A stretch of 16,820 nucleotides of DNA from a virus. The notes under the pieces are model-generated. The model saw only the letters and a list, made by a program, of their open reading frames with translations, had not been told where the DNA came from and ran no database searches. The position numbers were made by a program, and so were the translations under genes. The DNA lies in UHGV virus genome UHGV-0364865; one strand, 5' to 3'. Numbering within the stretch: the first letter of the stretch is position 1; each line of letters opens with the position of its first letter. Positions 9,340 through 15,115 of the stretch are shown here, piece by piece.

Positions 9340-9450
9340 ATGCCCTCCATAGTAACCATAACGCAATAATACGATATGTACTTTTAGAATGCAAACAAAA
9401 AATACATCTTGTGCATGGATGATTTTAGTACAGAGCGTAATAATAAGGGT
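9340..9450. promoter_or_regulatory. Divergent immunity control region (OR-type) containing PR for cro and a PRM-type promoter for cI
   Basis: PR on the minus strand: TTGCAT (plus 9389-9394), 17-nt spacer, TATTAT (plus 9366-9371), then SD and the cro ATG. Imperfect palindromes (e.g. ATGCAAAC...TTGTGCAT at 9389-9416) and recurring TTTAG motifs are operator candidates; exact operators not resolved. Confidence 0.65.
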
Positions 9451-10110
9451 ATGAAAATGAAATGGTATGAACTGGCTAGATCCAGAATGAAAGAGCTCGG
9501 CATAACTCAAGAGAAGTTAGCCGAAGAGCTTGGTATGACGCAGGGTGGAATTGGTCACTGGTTGCGCGGATCTCGTCATCCATCTCTTGACGAGATTGGT
9601 GTGGTGTTTAAATACCTTGGTATTGATAACGTCTCATTCAACCACGACGGTACATTTTCACCTGTTGGCGAATACTCATCTGCCCCCGTTAAAAAACAAT
9701 ATGAGTACCCTGTTTTTTCTCATGTTCAGGCCGGGATGTTCTCGCCTGAGCTTAGAACCTTTACCAAAGGTGATGCGGAGAGATGGGTCAGCACAACCAA
9801 AAAAGCCAGTGATTGTGCGTTTTGGCTTGAAGTTGAAGGTAATTCCATGACCGCGCCAACAGGATCCAAGCCAAGCTTTCCTGACGGGATGTTAATTCTC
9901 GTTGACCCTGAGCAGGCTGTTGAGCCAGGTGATTTCTGCATAGCCAGACTTGGTGGTGACGAGTTTACCTTCAAGAAACTGATCAGGGATAGCGGTCAGG
10001 TGTTCCTACAACCACTAAACCCGCAATATCCAATGATTCCATGCAATGATAGCTGTTCCGTAGTAGGGAAAGTTATCGCTAGCCAGTGGCCTGAAGAGAC
10101 ATTTAGTTAA
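9451..10110 (+). CDS. cI: CI-type prophage repressor (HTH plus LexA-like S24 autopeptidase domain)
   Basis: 219-aa product from the ATG at 9451 (SD AAGGG upstream); N-terminal HTH; C-terminal S24 domain with catalytic Ser in GNSMTAP and Lys in FTFKKL; divergent from cro. Confidence 0.85.
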
Positions 10111-10357: not shown

Positions 10358-10455
10358 GATCACCCAACCACATAAGCTGTGGGATGCAATGCCGAAGCAA
10401 CCGTCTCAGGAGGGGCTTCGAGATTGCATCGCCAAAGTTTATTCGGGAGGAATCT

Positions 10456-10728
10456 ATGTCCAGAAAAACAGAATTTAAAGGAACCGCAGCTTCTCGCCGT
10501 AGAGCTCGTCGTGCAAATCTGCAAAGTCAGGAGGCGATCAGCTCCGACAAGCTACACAGGCCAACCCCTTCACGAGTGGTCTTGCAATGCAAGCGCAAAC
10601 CAGCAATGAGAGCAGAAGTGATAACTCTGACAACGTTGACCAGAAAATATGAAGGTTCAACTTGTCTTCCAAACGTAGCTCTTTACGCGGCAGGCTACCG
10701 GAAATCCAAACAACTGACAGCAAGATGA
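10456..10728 (+). CDS. N: N-type transcription antiterminator
   Basis: 90-aa product from the internal ATG at 10456 (SD GGGAGG upstream); N-terminal arginine-rich motif (GTAASRRRARRANLQ); C-terminus ...VALYAAGYRKSKQLTAR resembles the P22 gp24 C-terminus as recalled. Confidence 0.75.
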   Translation: MSRKTEFKGTAASRRRARRANLQSQEAISSDKLHRPTPSRVVLQCKRKPAMRAEVITLTTLTRKYEGSTCLPNVALYAAGYRKSKQLTAR

Positions 10729-10786: not shown

Positions 10787-11038
10787 ATGGAATTTCATGA
10801 AAGTGCGATTTATGATTTTCGCGCTAACGCAAATTCAGTAAAACCACAGCCAATTGCAGTTCTTTTTAAAACAATGGGTGCGTGGGCTGTTTTATGCTTC
10901 GCCGCTGATGACACTGATGCAAGAATGGCAATAGGCCAAGAGATGGAGATGGACCCGACAAACGATGAATTCATAATTTATGGCGCTCCATCTAATTACT
11001 TACTTGATACCTGCAACATTTACAACAAGGCTGCCTGA
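10787..11038 (+). CDS. Hypothetical small acidic protein
   Basis: 83-aa ORF with SD GAGGTG upstream; no recognisable motif. Confidence 0.5.
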   Translation: MEFHESAIYDFRANANSVKPQPIAVLFKTMGAWAVLCFAADDTDARMAIGQEMEMDPTNDEFIIYGAPSNYLLDTCNIYNKAA

Positions 11039-11077
11039 TGGTGGCCTTTATTTTTGGCATAAACAACAGAGGCTAAC

Positions 11078-11374
11078 ATGGAATTTAAAGGTACTGAAGG
11101 TAAGTGGGAAATAATGATGGATGGCGATGAGATTAAAATCATCCAGGCAGACTCACTTGAAAATGGCGCAGGCTGGCGTTCGTATATTGCAATCTGTGAG
11201 GAAGTTCAATGCATTGAAGATGCCAATCTAATAGCGGCAGCACCTGACCTTCTCGAAGCACTTCAGTTATTACTTAAGCAAACCAAAAATAGAACAACGA
11301 CAACATATCCAGAATGGTATGGAGCTGTTAATAAAGGTCTTGCAGCAATCAGAAAAGCTCTTGGGGAAGAATGA
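11078..11374 (+). CDS. Hypothetical protein with an ead/Ea22-type N-terminal-like domain
   Basis: 98-aa ORF with SD AGAGG; shares a motif pattern (G.W ... I.. ... AN.IAAAP.LLEAL) with the N-terminus of the 272-aa protein at 15531-16349. Confidence 0.55.
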   Translation: MEFKGTEGKWEIMMDGDEIKIIQADSLENGAGWRSYIAICEEVQCIEDANLIAAAPDLLEALQLLLKQTKNRTTTTYPEWYGAVNKGLAAIRKALGEE

Positions 11375-11532
11375 TGAATAAGAAATACATTGTTGAAGTT
11401 ATAGAGCGAGAAACGAAAGAAGTAATCAAACATTTCGAATTTGATAATTATAGAAAAGCTGACCGCGTAGAAGAAGGATTGTTGCGACAAAGTAATCTCG
11501 AAAAATTTGATGTTGTCATGCGATGCGAATAA
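11371..11532 (+). CDS. Hypothetical small protein (53 aa), translationally coupled to the upstream gene
   Basis: Not in the supplied ORF track (below its length cut-off); read manually: ATG at 11371 overlapping the upstream stop (ATGA), in frame to TAA at 11530-11532; product MMNKKYIVEVIERETKEVIKHFEFDNYRKADRVEEGLLRQSNLEKFDVVMRCE. Confidence 0.4.
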   Translation: MMNKKYIVEVIERETKEVIKHFEFDNYRKADRVEEGLLRQSNLEKFDVVMRCE

Positions 11533-11625
11533 GCGCCTATAGCAGATTTACGAGTCTGCTATGTGAGCAATGTCGCTCGTAACTAAACAGGAGCCGACTT
11601 GTTCTGATTATTGGAAATCTTCTTT

Positions 11626-11651
11626 GCCCTCCAATGTGAGGGCGATTTTTT
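11626..11651 (+). terminator. tL1-like intrinsic terminator
   Basis: Stem GCCCTC (11626-11631) / GAGGGC (11638-11643) with a 6-nt loop, followed by GATTTTTT. Confidence 0.7.
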
Positions 11652-11671
11652 ATCTGTGAGGATATGAACAG

Positions 11672-12040
11672 ATGTCAAACATCAAAAAATACATCATTGA
11701 TTACGACTGGAAAGCATCAATAGAAATTGAAATCGACCATGACGTAATGACAGAGGAAAAACTTCACCAGATTAATAATTTCTGGTCAGACTCTGAATAC
11801 CGACTCAATAAACACGGCGCTGTATTAAATGCTGTATTAATCATGCTGGCGCAACATGCTCTGCTTATAGCAATTTCGAAAGACTTAAATGCATATGGTG
11901 TTGTTTGTGAGTTCGACTGGGATGATGGAAATGGTCAGGAAGGATGGCCTCCAATGGATGGTAGCGAAGGAATAAGAATTACCGATATCGACACATCAGG
12001 AATATTTGATTCAGATGATATGACTATCAAAGCCGCCTGA
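11672..12040 (+). CDS. Hypothetical acidic protein
   Basis: 122-aa ORF with SD GAGGA upstream; first gene after the tL1-like terminator; no confident family assignment. Confidence 0.55.
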   Translation: MSNIKKYIIDYDWKASIEIEIDHDVMTEEKLHQINNFWSDSEYRLNKHGAVLNAVLIMLAQHALLIAISKDLNAYGVVCEFDWDDGNGQEGWPPMDGSEGIRITDIDTSGIFDSDDMTIKAA

Positions 12041-12074
12041 GAGCGTTTTTAAAGAATACAACGAAGGAGGATAT

Positions 12075-13043
12075 ATGAGTGAAGTAACAGATTTAGTTGT
12101 TATTGAAAAAGCAAATGCAATGACTGTATTTCAGTCTTCCGACCAGATTGAAGAAATCCTTCAAAAGGTTGAACGTGAAGTTATGTCCTTTGTGCCTGAT
12201 ATCACAACGGCAAAGGGCAGAAAGGAGATCGCTTCTCTGGCGTATAAAGTTGCGCAGACGAAAACATATCTCGATGGTCTTGGCAAAGACCTTGTTGCTG
12301 AACTGAAGGAAATTCCAAAGCTAATTGATGCCAACCGCAAGACAGTGCGTGATCGCCTTGATGAGCTGAAAGCCAAGGCACGCCAGCCTCTTACTGATTA
12401 TGAGGAAGAACAGGCGCGGATTAAAGCCGAAGAAGAAGCTAAGGCAGCAGCTGAAGCTCTCGCAAAGCAAATTGAGTCTGACCATGAAATAGCGATTTTG
12501 ATGGATCGCGAATTTGACCGCCAAAGAGAAGAGGCAAGACTCAAAGCGGAGCAGGAAAAGCGAGAGCATGAAGAACGATTAAAAAGAGAAGCTGAAGAGA
12601 AAGCCAGAGCAGAAGCCGAAGCAAAGGCAAAAGCCGAAATTGAAGCAGCAGCAAGGCGAGAAGCAGAAGCTAAGGCCGCAGCAGAACGTGCAGAGCGTGA
12701 ACGCATTGAAGCCGAGCAACGAGCACAGCGCGAAGCAAAAGAGGCAGCAGAACGAGCTGAAAGAGAAAAGCAGGCAGCAATTGAAGCAGAACGCAGAAAA
12801 GCACAGGAGGAGGCTGAACAAATCCGTCGCGATGCTGAAGCAAAAGAGCAAGCCAGAATAGCAGAAGAAAAAAGAATCAAGGACGAAGAAGAGCGTAGAG
12901 CAAAGGATAAAGATCACCGGAAAGAAGTAAATAACAAAATACTTGCTGACCTTATCAAGGTTGGCGCATCAGAAGATGTTGCTAAAAATATCATAACAGC
13001 CATCGTAAAAGGCGAAGTATTCGCAACAAAAATAACCTACTAA
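12075..13043 (+). CDS. Hypothetical protein with a long, highly charged E/K/R/A-rich central helical region
   Basis: 322-aa ORF with strong SD AAGGAGG; about 120-aa N-terminal region, about 150-aa central segment made almost entirely of E, A, K, R, Q (predicted single alpha-helix or coiled coil), and about 45-aa C-terminal region; antisense ORFs across it are low-complexity artefacts. Confidence 0.65.
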   Translation: MSEVTDLVVIEKANAMTVFQSSDQIEEILQKVEREVMSFVPDITTAKGRKEIASLAYKVAQTKTYLDGLGKDLVAELKEIPKLIDANRKTVRDRLDELKAKARQPLTDYEEEQARIKAEEEAKAAAEALAKQIESDHEIAILMDREFDRQREEARLKAEQEKREHEERLKREAEEKARAEAEAKAKAEIEAAARREAEAKAAAERAERERIEAEQRAQREAKEAAERAEREKQAAIEAERRKAQEEAEQIRRDAEAKEQARIAEEKRIKDEEERRAKDKDHRKEVNNKILADLIKVGASEDVAKNIITAIVKGEVFATKITY

Positions 13044-13067: not shown

Positions 13068-13199
13068 ATGATTTACGCAATCGCGGGAGGCGCTCGCATG
13101 GGTGCCTTCCAACTAAATGAATCTTTACTTGAACGAATCACCCGTAAATTACGTGACGGATGGAAAAGAGTTGAGGTCTTATTATGCGCAATGAAATAG
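13068..13199 (+). CDS. cIII: CIII (FtsH/HflB protease inhibitor), short allele
   Basis: Manually read 43-aa ORF (not in the ORF track): MIYAIAGGARMGAFQLNESLLERITRKLRDGWKRVEVLLCAMK; the ESLLERITRKLRDGWKR core matches the conserved lambda CIII region; SD AAGGAA upstream. Confidence 0.7.
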   Translation: MIYAIAGGARMGAFQLNESLLERITRKLRDGWKRVEVLLCAMK

Positions 13200-13336
13200 C
13201 CATCAATCACCAGATGCTTCGTGCTGCACAGAACAAAGCAGTAATAGCCAGATTTATTGGTGATTCAAAAATGTGGCTTGAAGCAAATAAAGCGATGAAA
13301 TCAGCTATCAACCTTCCGTGGTATCGCAGGAAATGA
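13184..13336 (+). CDS. kil: Kil-like host cell-division inhibitor
   Basis: Manually read 50-aa ORF: MRNEIAINHQMLRAAQNKAVIARFIGDSKMWLEANKAMKSAINLPWYRRK; IARFIGDSKMW resembles the lambda Kil core as recalled; immediately follows cIII as in lambda; SD GAGG upstream. Confidence 0.5.
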   Translation: MRNEIAINHQMLRAAQNKAVIARFIGDSKMWLEANKAMKSAINLPWYRRK

Positions 13337-13590: not shown

Positions 13591-14298
13591 ATGGATTTGA
13601 ACAAATTCGATGAGCCATTCAGCCCTGAAGATATCGAATGGCGAATACAGCAAAGCGGTAAAACACGCGATGGCAAGGTGTGGGCTATGGTGCTGGCTTA
13701 TGTCACGAACCGGGCAATCATGAAACGCCTGGACGATGTTTGCGGCAAAGCAGGATGGCGCAATGAATACCGCGATATTCCCAACAACGGCGGAGTTGAA
13801 TGCGGCATATCAATCAAGATTGATTCCGAATGGGTAACCAAATGGGATGCTGCTGAAAACACGCAGGTAGAAGCCGTCAAAGGTGGTCGTTCCGGTGCAA
13901 TGAAGCGTGCTGCCGTTCAGTGGGGAATCGGTCGGTATCTGTATAACCTTGAGGAAGGTTTCGCACAAACATCTCTCGATAAAAAGCAGGGGTGGCACAG
14001 GGCAAAACTGAAGGATGGAACAGGATTTTACTGGTCCCCTCCATCGCTGCCGGGATGGGCAATCCCAGCATCAGATAACAAACCATCACCAGAAAATACC
14101 AACCAGAAATCTCCATCGGTTGACTGCGAACAAATCCTGAAAGACTTCAGCGATTATGCGTCAACAGAAACTGACAAGAAAAAACTCATCGAGCGTTATC
14201 AGCGTGACTGGCAATTAATGGCTGGCAACGAGGAGGCGCAGGCTAAATGCGTTCAGGTAATGAACATCAGAGTTAACGAACTAAAACAGGCGGCATAG
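13591..14298 (+). CDS. Single-strand annealing protein, Rad52-like (Sak-type) N-terminal region with a separate C-terminal domain
   Basis: 235-aa ORF with SD GAGGTG; sits directly upstream of ssb in the early-left operon, in the position occupied by recombination genes in lambda; N-terminal region resembles Rad52/Sak annealing proteins (from memory); C-terminal ~70 aa looks like a separate, possibly Erf-like, tail. Confidence 0.5.
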   Translation: MDLNKFDEPFSPEDIEWRIQQSGKTRDGKVWAMVLAYVTNRAIMKRLDDVCGKAGWRNEYRDIPNNGGVECGISIKIDSEWVTKWDAAENTQVEAVKGGRSGAMKRAAVQWGIGRYLYNLEEGFAQTSLDKKQGWHRAKLKDGTGFYWSPPSLPGWAIPASDNKPSPENTNQKSPSVDCEQILKDFSDYASTETDKKKLIERYQRDWQLMAGNEEAQAKCVQVMNIRVNELKQAA

Positions 14299-14805
14299 AT
14301 GGCAAGCAGAGGCGTAAATAAGGTGATTATCCTTGGTCGGGTAGGACAAGACCCGGAAGTTCGATACTCACCATCAGGAACAGCGTTCGCTAACCTGACA
14401 ATAGCCACGTCAGAACAATGGCGAGATAAAAATACTGGCGAGCAAAAGGAATTGACTGAATGGCATCGTGTTGCTGTATCCGGGAAACTGGCTGAGGTCG
14501 TGGGGCAGTATGTGAAAAAAGGTGATCAGATTTATTTCGAGGGAATGCTGAGAACCAGAAAGTGGAAAGACCAGTCAGGGCAAGACCGTTACACAACCGA
14601 GGTTCATGTCGGAATTAATGGCGTGATGCAAATGCTTGGCAGCATTGGCGACAGCAAACAACAAGCAGCCAGCAGGCAATCACAGAAGCCACAGCAGCAA
14701 TCATCACCAGCACAACACAACGAACCTCCGATGGATTTTGACGACGATATACCCTTTGCACCAGTAACTCTCCCCTTCCCTCGTCACGCTATTCACGCAA
14801 TTTAA
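14299..14805 (+). CDS. ssb: Single-stranded DNA-binding protein (SSB) with a C-terminal extension
   Basis: 168-aa ORF; N-terminal OB-fold region close to E. coli SSB ([18 protein letters not shown]....TEWHRV..GKLAEV...[18 protein letters not shown]); the canonical tail [11 protein letters not shown] is present but followed by 15 more residues ([15 protein letters not shown]) before the stop. Confidence 0.9.
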
Positions 14806-14818
14806 TCAGGAGAAAATC

Positions 14819-15115
14819 ATGCCAGCGCCTCAGTATGGTGCGGATGACCCGCGCCGCTGTTCCGGTAATTCCGTATCGGAGGTGCTGGATAAATTCAGGA
14901 AAAACTACGACCGGATAATGTCGCTACCGCAGGAAACGAAAGAGGAAAAGGAATTTCGCCATTGTATATGGCTTGCAGAGAAAGAAGAACGCGAGCGAAT
15001 TTACCAGACATCAATCCGACCATTCCGCAAAGCCACATATACCAACTTCCCTGAATATATCGACCCGCGCCTGCGTAATTACCGCTCACGCTATGGCGCT
15101 ATCAGTAATGACTGA
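14819..15115 (+). CDS. Hypothetical protein
   Basis: 98-aa ORF with SD AGGAGA upstream. Confidence 0.5.

Follow-up and report, generated by a model that had tools for sequence, protein, structure and literature searches.

Which functions occupy the interval between N and cIII in the virus genome UHGV-0364865, and do the two genes found there belong together? The window analysed here, a stretch of 16,820 nucleotides taken as a whole, carries in this interval one gene for a protein of 122 amino acids (aa) and one for a protein of 322 aa. The gene order obtained with Pfam and PHROG scans places both in the early-left (pL) operon of a lambdoid prophage, between N and cIII, as an earlier note on this DNA had proposed. 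The two open reading frames (ORFs) reported in that note were recovered exactly by our ORF scan, and both carry the good Shine-Dalgarno sites that it had described, read from the sequence as GAGGA at 11658-11662, 9 nt 5' of the ATG of the shorter gene, and as AAGGAGGA at 12064-12071, 3 nt 5' of the ATG of the longer one. The note had recognised neither protein, and here we part from it: the shorter is lambda Ea10, and the longer is a homolog of Sf6 gp33, D3 Orf53 and phi80 Agt/Mog. The reading that we prefer, and hold to be reasonably probable, is that the 322-aa protein would serve as an accessory tether or spacer of the phage recombination (Rec) module, by a mechanism that we infer, and that ea10 is a separate mosaic module. 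The features on which the argument turns are as follows; structural entries refer to AlphaFold2 (AF2) models and their predicted local distance difference test scores (pLDDT).

11672-12040, + strand: ea10, 122 aa, ATG start (ORF scan, Pfam, PHROG, identity to lambda)
12075-13043, + strand: Mog/Agt-family gene, 322 aa, ATG start (ORF scan, phrog_1376, homology to phi80 agt/mog)
12075-12398, + strand: conserved, family-defining N-terminal domain, residues 1-108 (alignments A1 and A3; helical in the AF2 model, pLDDT 80-88)
12480-12521, + strand: non-biased motif DHEIAILMDREFDR, residues 136-149, inside the long helix (family consensus DHExALLxNxxFDR)
12522-12923, + strand: predicted ER/K-type single alpha-helix spacer, residues 150-283 (composition, charge-pair statistics)
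12924-13040, + strand: C-terminal domain, residues 284-322 (alignment A1; AF2 pLDDT 88-96)

The homology of the 322-aa protein makes it a member of a family formed by phi80 Mog/Agt, Sf6 gp33 and D3 Orf53 and corresponding to phrog_1376, a group of unknown function that it matched over residues 1-322 (1.1e-109). The Agt/Mog protein of phage phi80 (Lula; YP_007947961), to which we were led by the annotation note on a homolog in Erwinia phage 49, is also 322 aa long and is 50% identical over residues 1-322 (E 1e-64). In the phi80 record (NC_021190), the GenBank note on agt reads 'anti-toxin for Gam; Mog (modifier of Gam)', and that on gamL, the next gene after agt, reads 'toxic without Mog'; RecT and Exo follow. 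Sf6 gp33, annotated as 'similar to phage D3 Orf53', is 98.7% identical to the window protein outside the variable centre, and D3 Orf53 (354 aa) has an N-terminal domain that is 54% identical. A search of 1.84 billion proteins returned 5,490 cluster representatives at E<=0.001, which establishes the ORF as a real gene, and 552 of these at E<=1e-30, the weaker matches being possibly driven by composition; the N-terminal part alone matched 157 phage records by tblastn.

No Pfam family matched the 322-aa protein, whether tested whole, in parts or via 85 diverse homologs, and NCBIfam and PADLOC scans of the protein, its ends and the 85 homologs assigned no family, the sub-threshold matches to TolA, CENP-F and LmuB being driven by composition. 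A sequence search of the PDB with the family profile gave nothing below E 0.048, all matches being charged helices; Foldseek with the full AF2 model found nothing in the PDB at E<=0.001 and family members only in BFVD; and a profile search with the N-domain in a set of 5.8 billion proteins had only family members among its best 120 matches. The profile and structure-prediction searches that the earlier note had suggested assigned Ea10 to DUF2528, and for the 322-aa protein they yielded neither a Pfam family nor a fold match in the PDB. The note had also taken clear homology to a characterised phage protein as the outcome that would speak against its reading, and what emerged lies halfway, both homologs being named and poorly characterised. 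The cluster of one 249-aa homolog, P0316 (59% identical), has a precomputed match to PF27398, which might be a very recent Pfam family covering part of the Mog family.

Alignment A1, built from 85 cluster representatives of 35-58% identity, divides the protein into an N-domain, a charged centre and a C-domain, and the comparison of homologs shows a fixed build across the family, with a helical N-domain of about 110 residues, a predicted ER/K helix of about 47-180 residues and a C-domain of about 40 residues. The N-domain carries the motif FVPDxSTAKGRKEIASxAxKVAxxKTYLDxxGKxLVAExKxxPKxVDAxRK...VRxPLTxWE; R49 never varies in A1, nor do R49, G70, R103, P105 and E110 in A3, the alignment of the N-domain. 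The C-domain consensus is HRxxINxxAxxxLxxxGxxExxAKxxxxAIAxGxIxxxxIxY, with a conserved terminal I-x-Y/F; of 75 homologs, 70 end in one of these two residues, 58 of them in Y and 12 in F.

In the whole protein, E accounts for 19% of the residues, A for 18%, K for 11% and R for 10%. Its biased region begins at about residue 109, is broken by the conserved non-biased motif at 136-149, and from about residue 150 to about residue 283 (134 residues) has 20-residue windows that are 85-100% E/K/R/A/Q/D. The earlier note had spoken of a helix of about 150 residues made of E, K, R and A only, which is fair as to length and slightly overstated in the word 'only', Q, D and I being present as well. Opposite-charge pairs at i->i+4 number 51 in residues 150-283, against 24.4+-3.7 in shuffles, with the other spacings at expectation (18-27), and no 3.5-residue periodicity of hydrophobic residues (A/I/L/V/M/F) was detected in the same segment (power 0.20; the maxima in shuffles average 1.05). 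Every one of the 75 full-length homologs recovered in the genome scan has the biased run (median 120 residues, range 47-180), and the family median z is 4.3 at i+4, 0.4 at i+3 and 0.7 at i+7. Because of the i->i+4 excess together with the lack of a 3.5-residue periodicity, the statistics favour the signature of an ER/K single alpha-helix over that of a coiled coil, which agrees with the first of the options named in the note, a long single alpha-helix. As an ideal straight helix, residues 150-283 would measure about 20 nm. The AF2 model (pLDDT 85.9; predicted template modelling score, pTM, 0.39) has helices at 12-20, 22-37, 46-187, 193-295 and 300-311, and the spacer helix is above pLDDT 90 save for a break at 184-194, where pLDDT falls below 50; with such values at the break and in pTM, the model does not decide between a straight and a folded-back rod.

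The centre of the gene is also where its length varies. Alleles in E. coli encode 245, 275, 290, 296, 300, 304, 306, 309, 322 and 333 aa, with end domains that are 97-99% identical, and all of their indels are in frame and fall within residues 128-243 (window 12456-12803), as deletions of 13-77 codons and, in one allele, a duplication of 11 residues. The confinement of indels to the gene centre explains why, for most phages, megablast returns two separate segments that together account for about 72% of the query. Short imperfect direct repeats are present in the helix-coding DNA and could mediate the in-frame length changes. The 245-aa class of alleles is common, with several clusters and tens of contigs; these natural variants are without residues 128-203, the DHE...FDR motif included.

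The company that the gene keeps was examined in bacterial genomes and in annotated phages. With an N-domain alignment of 6 sequences, 80 loci were retrieved from bacterial contigs holding one genome per species, and the statistics were computed on the 64 of them with at least 2.5 kb of flank on both sides, which come from Gamma-, Beta- and Alphaproteobacteria. Neighbours were classified with our own ORF calls and with iterated hidden Markov model (HMM) searches seeded from annotated phage proteins, the ORF calls and seed HMMs being crude, and unclassified neighbours were checked with Pfam and PHROG. A strand-annealing protein was found within 2.5 kb in 55/64 loci, on the same strand in every case, and belonged to the RecT/Beta (27), Erf (15), phrog_10048-like (6), Sak4/AAA_24 (5) or Rad52 (2) families. 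An exonuclease (YqaJ, lambda-Exo or RecE) was present in 50 of the 64, an annealing protein or an exonuclease lay within 2.5 kb in 58, and the neighbours were in direct adjacency (gap <=150 bp) in 44. With about one recombinase gene per phage genome of 40-50 kb, some 10% of loci would have one within +-2.5 kb by chance, a figure that is an estimate and not a computed control. Across alpha-, beta- and gammaproteobacterial phages and prophages, the gene shares its strand with, and in most cases abuts, a recombination module built on RecT/Beta, Erf, Rad52 or Sak4, with or without an exonuclease and a single-stranded DNA-binding protein (SSB). In the window, a Rad52-type recombinase starts 548 bp downstream of the 322-aa gene on the same strand, with SSB and Abc2 next. 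The arrangements found in phages illustrate the range of partners:

D3: Orf53 - ERF - YqaJ exonuclease, with Orf53 directly upstream
Sinorhizobium phage phiLM21: homolog - ERF - YqaJ - NinB
Klebsiella phage Mulock and phi80: homolog - GamL - Bet/RecT - Exo
Iodobacter phage phiPLPE: RecE - Bet - homolog - RdgC
Yersinia phage 29.18: homolog - cIII - ... - RecE - RecT
Erwinia phage 49: homolog ... Erf
Serratia phage Eta: homolog ... ExoVIII ... Bet
Vibrio phage Seahorse: Sak4 - SSB - homolog
Vibrio phage phiV208: Erf - exonuclease - small ORF - homolog

The N-domains of loci with different recombinase families are 80-93% identical. Spearman correlations did not bear out an impression that the C-domain follows the recombinase downstream of it: in a comparison made with crude ORF calls and global identities, no usable co-variation of either end domain with neighbouring genes was detected. 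The coefficients were about 0.02-0.05 when all pairs were taken and did not exceed 0.26 among the 17 closest.

The phrog_10048 proteins deserve a remark of their own. They are 258-342 aa long (L040:5935-6792, L062:6155-6979, L063:6043-7071 and L033:3806-4582, and also in L078-L080), are listed as of 'unknown function' and have no Pfam match, and they share the motifs HYGxIPG...KPGAEKL...KMAxKRA. They lie between the Mog-like gene (or RecE) and the YqaJ exonuclease or SSB, where an annealing protein is expected, and by position and motif they are probably an unrecognised or highly divergent family of annealing proteins.

We propose that ea10 and the 322-aa gene would be transcribed from pL after N-dependent read-through of the terminator tL2a, and that the 322-aa protein would act as a two-ended tether or spacer of the recombination module. 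Its N-domain may bind something common to all phage-host pairs, such as a host factor of DNA-end processing or replication, or a DNA structure; a partner of this kind appears more likely than the recombinase because the N-domain is so similar, at the identities given above, across different recombinase families. The helix would keep the C-domain some 10-25 nm away, and the general role would be to restrain or direct the action of the module on host RecBCD or on DNA ends. Such a role would not be a neutralisation specific to GamL, because GamL is absent from the window and from 63/64 loci, and the 'modifier of Gam' phenotype of phi80 might be one expression of something broader. A bolder version, which we regard as possible and put forward tentatively, is that Mog, gp33 and Orf53 represent an unrecognised and near-universal component of proteobacterial annealing modules, in which the ER/K helix would be a length-tunable ruler of about 7-27 nm to RecBCD, DNA ends or the replisome, 'modifier of Gam' would be one facet, and the DUF1351 proteins would be analogues.

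Several points weigh against assigning the protein to the recombination module. The functional statement for phi80 is known from GenBank notes only; synteny is not function, and the genes of the early-left operon are tightly packed. Six of the 64 loci are without a recombination gene nearby, and in the window itself cIII, kil and two small ORFs stand between the 322-aa gene and the Rad52-type recombinase. The family goes unmentioned in the main text of a survey, published in 2025, that covers 325 lambdoid Rec modules (PMC12315714); its authors describe the clusters of lambda, P22, HK620 and Rac as free of extraneous genes and report very few genes of unpredictable function within canonical Rec modules. 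That neither end domain showed detectable co-variation with the genes beside it belongs here too, as does the AF2 hairpin (46-187 and 193-295), which would bring the two ends together, on a turn with pLDDT below 50 in a model of pTM 0.39. Finally, the 245-aa alleles imply either that the DHE...FDR motif is dispensable or that those alleles are defective.

The gene upstream tells a different story. The 122-aa protein matches Pfam DUF2528 (PF10800) over all 104 positions of the profile (1-104; E 4.1e-46, 156.2 bits against a cut-off of 22), which confirms that its ORF is a real gene, and it matches phrog_646 (8e-70). It is 97.5% identical (119/122 residues) to the protein recorded in J02459 as 'ea10 (ssb;122)', and the DNA from about 11565 to 12045 is near-identical to lambda, the homology stopping a few bases past the ea10 stop codon. 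This identity, the PF10800 match and the co-linearity of the DNA with lambda, tL2a included, make the protein Ea10, so that the gene which the earlier note had taken for an alternative to ea10 in its slot is ea10 itself. As the note had said, the protein is acidic, with an isoelectric point (pI) of 4.3 and a net charge of about -14. The AF2 model is confident (pLDDT 95.5, pTM 0.87) and consists of a beta-hairpin, four helices and one further strand, an alpha+beta arrangement with three strands. No Pfam match to an SSB or to an oligonucleotide/oligosaccharide-binding (OB) fold was obtained for Ea10; because the fold of the model is not OB, the historical 'ssb' label has no structural support either. 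Ea10 is abundant early in infection (PMC3961180), was non-essential in a CRISPR interference (CRISPRi) map (PMC10695390), and its role has been described as 'not fully understood' (bioRxiv 10.1101/2024.10.31.621285).

That the two genes form a pair, as the earlier note had it, is contradicted by their distribution. Of the 5,426 complete E. coli genomes searched, 1,466 (27%) contain ea10 and 496 (9%) the 5' third of the 322-aa gene, yet only 36 contain the junction between them. In Sf6, gene 33 comes after gp34 and tL2a and ea10 is missing, and lambda has ea10 without the 322-aa gene, cIII coming directly next. We reject on this account an operonic system of the two genes; they are unrelated mosaic modules of a lambdoid, P22/Sf6-like prophage, in chance juxtaposition. 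Several E. coli chromosomes carry prophages that match the 1.7 kb around both genes with 100% identity, and in strain Ecol_881 the prophage adjoins sbcB.

It remains to set the recombination-module reading beside its competitors. The earlier note had looked on the interval as a slot for anti-restriction and exclusion functions, and one or both proteins could be cargo of this kind, 'moron' functions for host takeover or anti-defence such as restriction alleviation, superinfection exclusion or DNA mimicry. Lambda holds ral, sieB and ea10 between N and cIII; Ea10 is very acidic, abundant early (PMC3961180) and non-essential (PMC10695390), like the anti-restriction proteins that mimic DNA; and both genes are mosaic and patchy in E. 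coli (27% and 9% of genomes). For the 322-aa gene, however, such cargo is at odds with a same-strand association with recombination genes in 58/64 loci of three proteobacterial classes and with a conserved architecture. Neither does the 322-aa protein match any entry of PADLOC-DB, which is a weak test, its models describing defence and not anti-defence. With regard to Ea10, the confident AF2 model of a compact alpha+beta domain speaks against it, although Ea10 may yet have an anti-defence role. Taken for one or both proteins, we judge the cargo explanation rather unlikely. A dedicated antitoxin of the RecBCD inhibitor GamL, with the 322-aa protein as one half of a toxin-antidote pair, is suggested by the two phi80 notes, by the label 'antitoxin protein' in HF4s and by the order homolog-GamL-Bet-Exo, which recurs in Klebsiella phage Mulock and in locus L023. 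Yet the window has no gamL, its anti-RecBCD gene being a P22-type Abc2, and GamL stands beside the homolog in 1/64 loci, far from the obligate adjacency expected of toxin and antidote. D3, phiLM21, phiPLPE and the Vibrio phages carry the gene without an annotated Gam, and a 37-kDa protein with a helix of about 20 nm would be an odd stoichiometric antidote to a protein of 93 residues. We find this reading improbable for the window protein and, with Abc2 in the window and 63/64 loci without GamL, reject it as the general function of the family.

The two remaining alternatives concern the long helix. Folded back as an antiparallel coiled-coil hairpin with the topology of SMC/Rad50, it would place the N- and C-domains in one head; the AF2 helices 46-187 and 193-295 are indeed joined by a short break and form arms of nearly equal length, and the conserved terminal segments (L-x-V-I-E at 7-11, I-x-Y at the end) could pair. 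However, the segment 150-283 is without the 3.5-residue periodicity of a coiled coil and has the strong i->i+4 salt-bridge signature of monomeric ER/K helices, the turn has a pLDDT below 50 in a model of pTM 0.39, natural indels are not symmetric about one point, and there are neither Walker or ABC head motifs nor a PDB fold match, all of which leaves the hairpin unlikely. A TolA-like cell-envelope protein, as named by the Prokaryotic Genome Annotation Pipeline (PGAP) and in many phage records, has in its favour that most homologs bear such names and that domain II of TolA is also a long Ala/Lys/Glu-rich helix, but we give it hardly any credence. The TIGR02794 score is 10.8 bits against a cut-off of 59.45, over the biased helix only; no hydrophobic segment that could anchor the protein in a membrane was detected (maximum 19-residue Kyte-Doolittle mean 1.03, threshold about 1.6); the N- and C-domains match no Pfam family, any TolA domain included; and the genomic context is a phage early operon. 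Membership of TolA is refuted by the score and the missing anchor, and for the same reasons the name is an artefact of composition. Family members in E. coli RefSeq and phage records (for example NZ_CP019029 5256576-5257544) are labelled 'cell envelope biogenesis protein TolA' or 'colicin import membrane protein', and elsewhere 'fibrinogen binding protein', 'putative tail-fiber protein', 'ribosome recycling factor' or 'major outer membrane lipoprotein'. TolA and the similar labels are artefacts of the charged low-complexity helix and amount to a systematic mis-annotation.

Recombineering is built on phage recombination modules (Red, RecET and related systems), which also drive the mosaicism of phage genomes; the usual account of such a module lists three or four components, drawn from annealing protein, exonuclease, SSB and anti-RecBCD protein. 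The occurrence of the Mog family alongside all annealing-protein families in Proteobacteria suggests a missing part of these modules, a candidate carried by about 9% of complete E. coli genomes, mislabelled as TolA and absent from Pfam. If, as the phi80 note would have it, such proteins moderate the toxicity or reach of anti-RecBCD proteins, they could improve recombineering, and the family would offer a rare case, among prokaryotic viruses, of an ER/K helix that serves as a spacer and comes in natural variants of different length. In the window itself, both genes are ordinary, widespread lambdoid genes with named homologs; the wider point lies in the family-level link of a mislabelled ER/K-helix protein to recombination modules across Proteobacteria.

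The remaining features of the window that frame the two genes are, in order:

9409-10110: cI-type repressor
10384-10728: N
10787-11532, + strand: three small ORFs of 83 aa (phrog_2471), 98 aa (phrog_1273) and 53 aa (phrog_6949)
11624-11651, + strand: intrinsic terminator, hairpin 11624-11645 and T-run, equal to lambda tL2a, directly upstream of ea10
13068-13199, + strand: cIII (Pfam Lambda_CIII 4e-15; so annotated in an identical E. coli prophage)
13184-13336, + strand: kil (Pfam Lambda_Kil 1.7e-20)
between kil and the Rad52-type gene: two small ORFs
13591-14298, + strand: Rad52-type single-strand annealing protein of the Rec module (Pfam Rad52_Rad22 5e-26; phrog_1097 6e-130)
14299-14805, + strand: phage SSB of the Rec module (Pfam SSB 1.5e-36)
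14819-15115, + strand: Abc2, P22-type anti-RecBCD protein of the Rec module (Pfam PF11043 Anti-RecBCD_p2 3.8e-61)
3' of Abc2: Ead/Ea22-like gene

The earlier note had placed the two genes behind tL1, a position that has to be corrected, the terminator upstream of them being the tL2a sequence of lambda. The terminator scan found at 11624-11651 a stem of 8 bp, 5 of them GC pairs, with TTTTTTAT after it, one base different from the ral-ea10 intergenic sequence of lambda, and the whole of 11565-11651 is near-identical to that intergenic region, tL2a hairpin included. In lambda, tL2a and LPR1 lie between ral and ea10, and the tL2a hairpin forms the 3' end of the Hfq-bound small RNA (sRNA) LPR1 (bioRxiv 10.1101/2024.10.31.621285). 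By its likeness to that region, the prophage probably makes an LPR1-like sRNA; Rfam, which has no model for LPR1, matched no RNA family in the window.

The three small ORFs at 10787-11532 occupy the ral/sieB slot between N and tL2a. They gave no significant Pfam family, the one sub-threshold match being to FlaG (15.4 bits, 53-aa ORF), and it is to these ORFs, rather than to ea10 or the 322-aa gene, that the description of unassigned 'moron-slot' genes truly applies in the window. A terminator-like hairpin with a T-run at 11027-11057 overlaps the stop codon of the 83-aa ORF, and its 3' half (TGATGGTGGCCTTTATTTTTGGC) equals the lambda sequence just downstream of ral at 22/23 bases, a match that suggests a conserved mosaic joint or a terminator common to unrelated upstream genes.

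How does the locus compare with known systems? Lambda and the window are alike in the tL2a terminator, in the ribosome-binding site of ea10 and in its position in the pL operon, and they differ in that cIII follows ea10 directly in lambda, whereas in the window a gene of 969 bp is inserted between them. In Sf6, gp33 takes the same slot before cIII as the 322-aa gene, with gp34 and tL2a upstream in place of ea10, and its central helix differs from that of the window protein by indels and substitutions. D3 Orf53 is longer (354 aa against 322) and abuts ERF directly.

Further afield, genes of the DUF1351, DUF2483, gp157-like or Mu Gam-like type stand just upstream of Erf-SSB, Sak4 and RecT modules in phages of Firmicutes, and an analogous accessory function in recombination has been inferred for them from position alone (PMC8093625). 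DUF1351 (PF07083) fills the same genomic niche in those phages as the Mog family does here, by analogy and not by membership: in HMM-versus-sequence comparisons, PF07083 matched 0/85 members at E<=0.01, and the N-domain alone gave no match at E<=10.

ER/K single alpha-helix (SAH) domains are known, for example, from myosin VI and X and from caldesmon. The window helix is like them in its dominance by E, K and R, in the excess of opposite charges at i->i+4, in the lack of a hydrophobic heptad and in a length that varies freely. It is unusually rich in Ala for such a domain (18% in the whole protein, with a median of 28% in the biased run of homologs), in which it resembles domain II of TolA, and it differs further in occurring in a phage protein and in that its monomeric state is a prediction from sequence. 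The likeness to TolA is confined to the composition of the long helix, the 322-aa protein having neither a membrane anchor nor the C-terminal domain of TolA.

A last comparison is with phi80, whose Agt/Mog protein and the window protein have the same length (322 aa), the same three-part build and the same position in the pL operon upstream of recombination genes. In phi80, GamL, RecT and Exo come immediately downstream, whereas in the window the order is cIII, kil, two small ORFs, Rad52, SSB and Abc2, without GamL, and Abc2 stands where phi80 has GamL.

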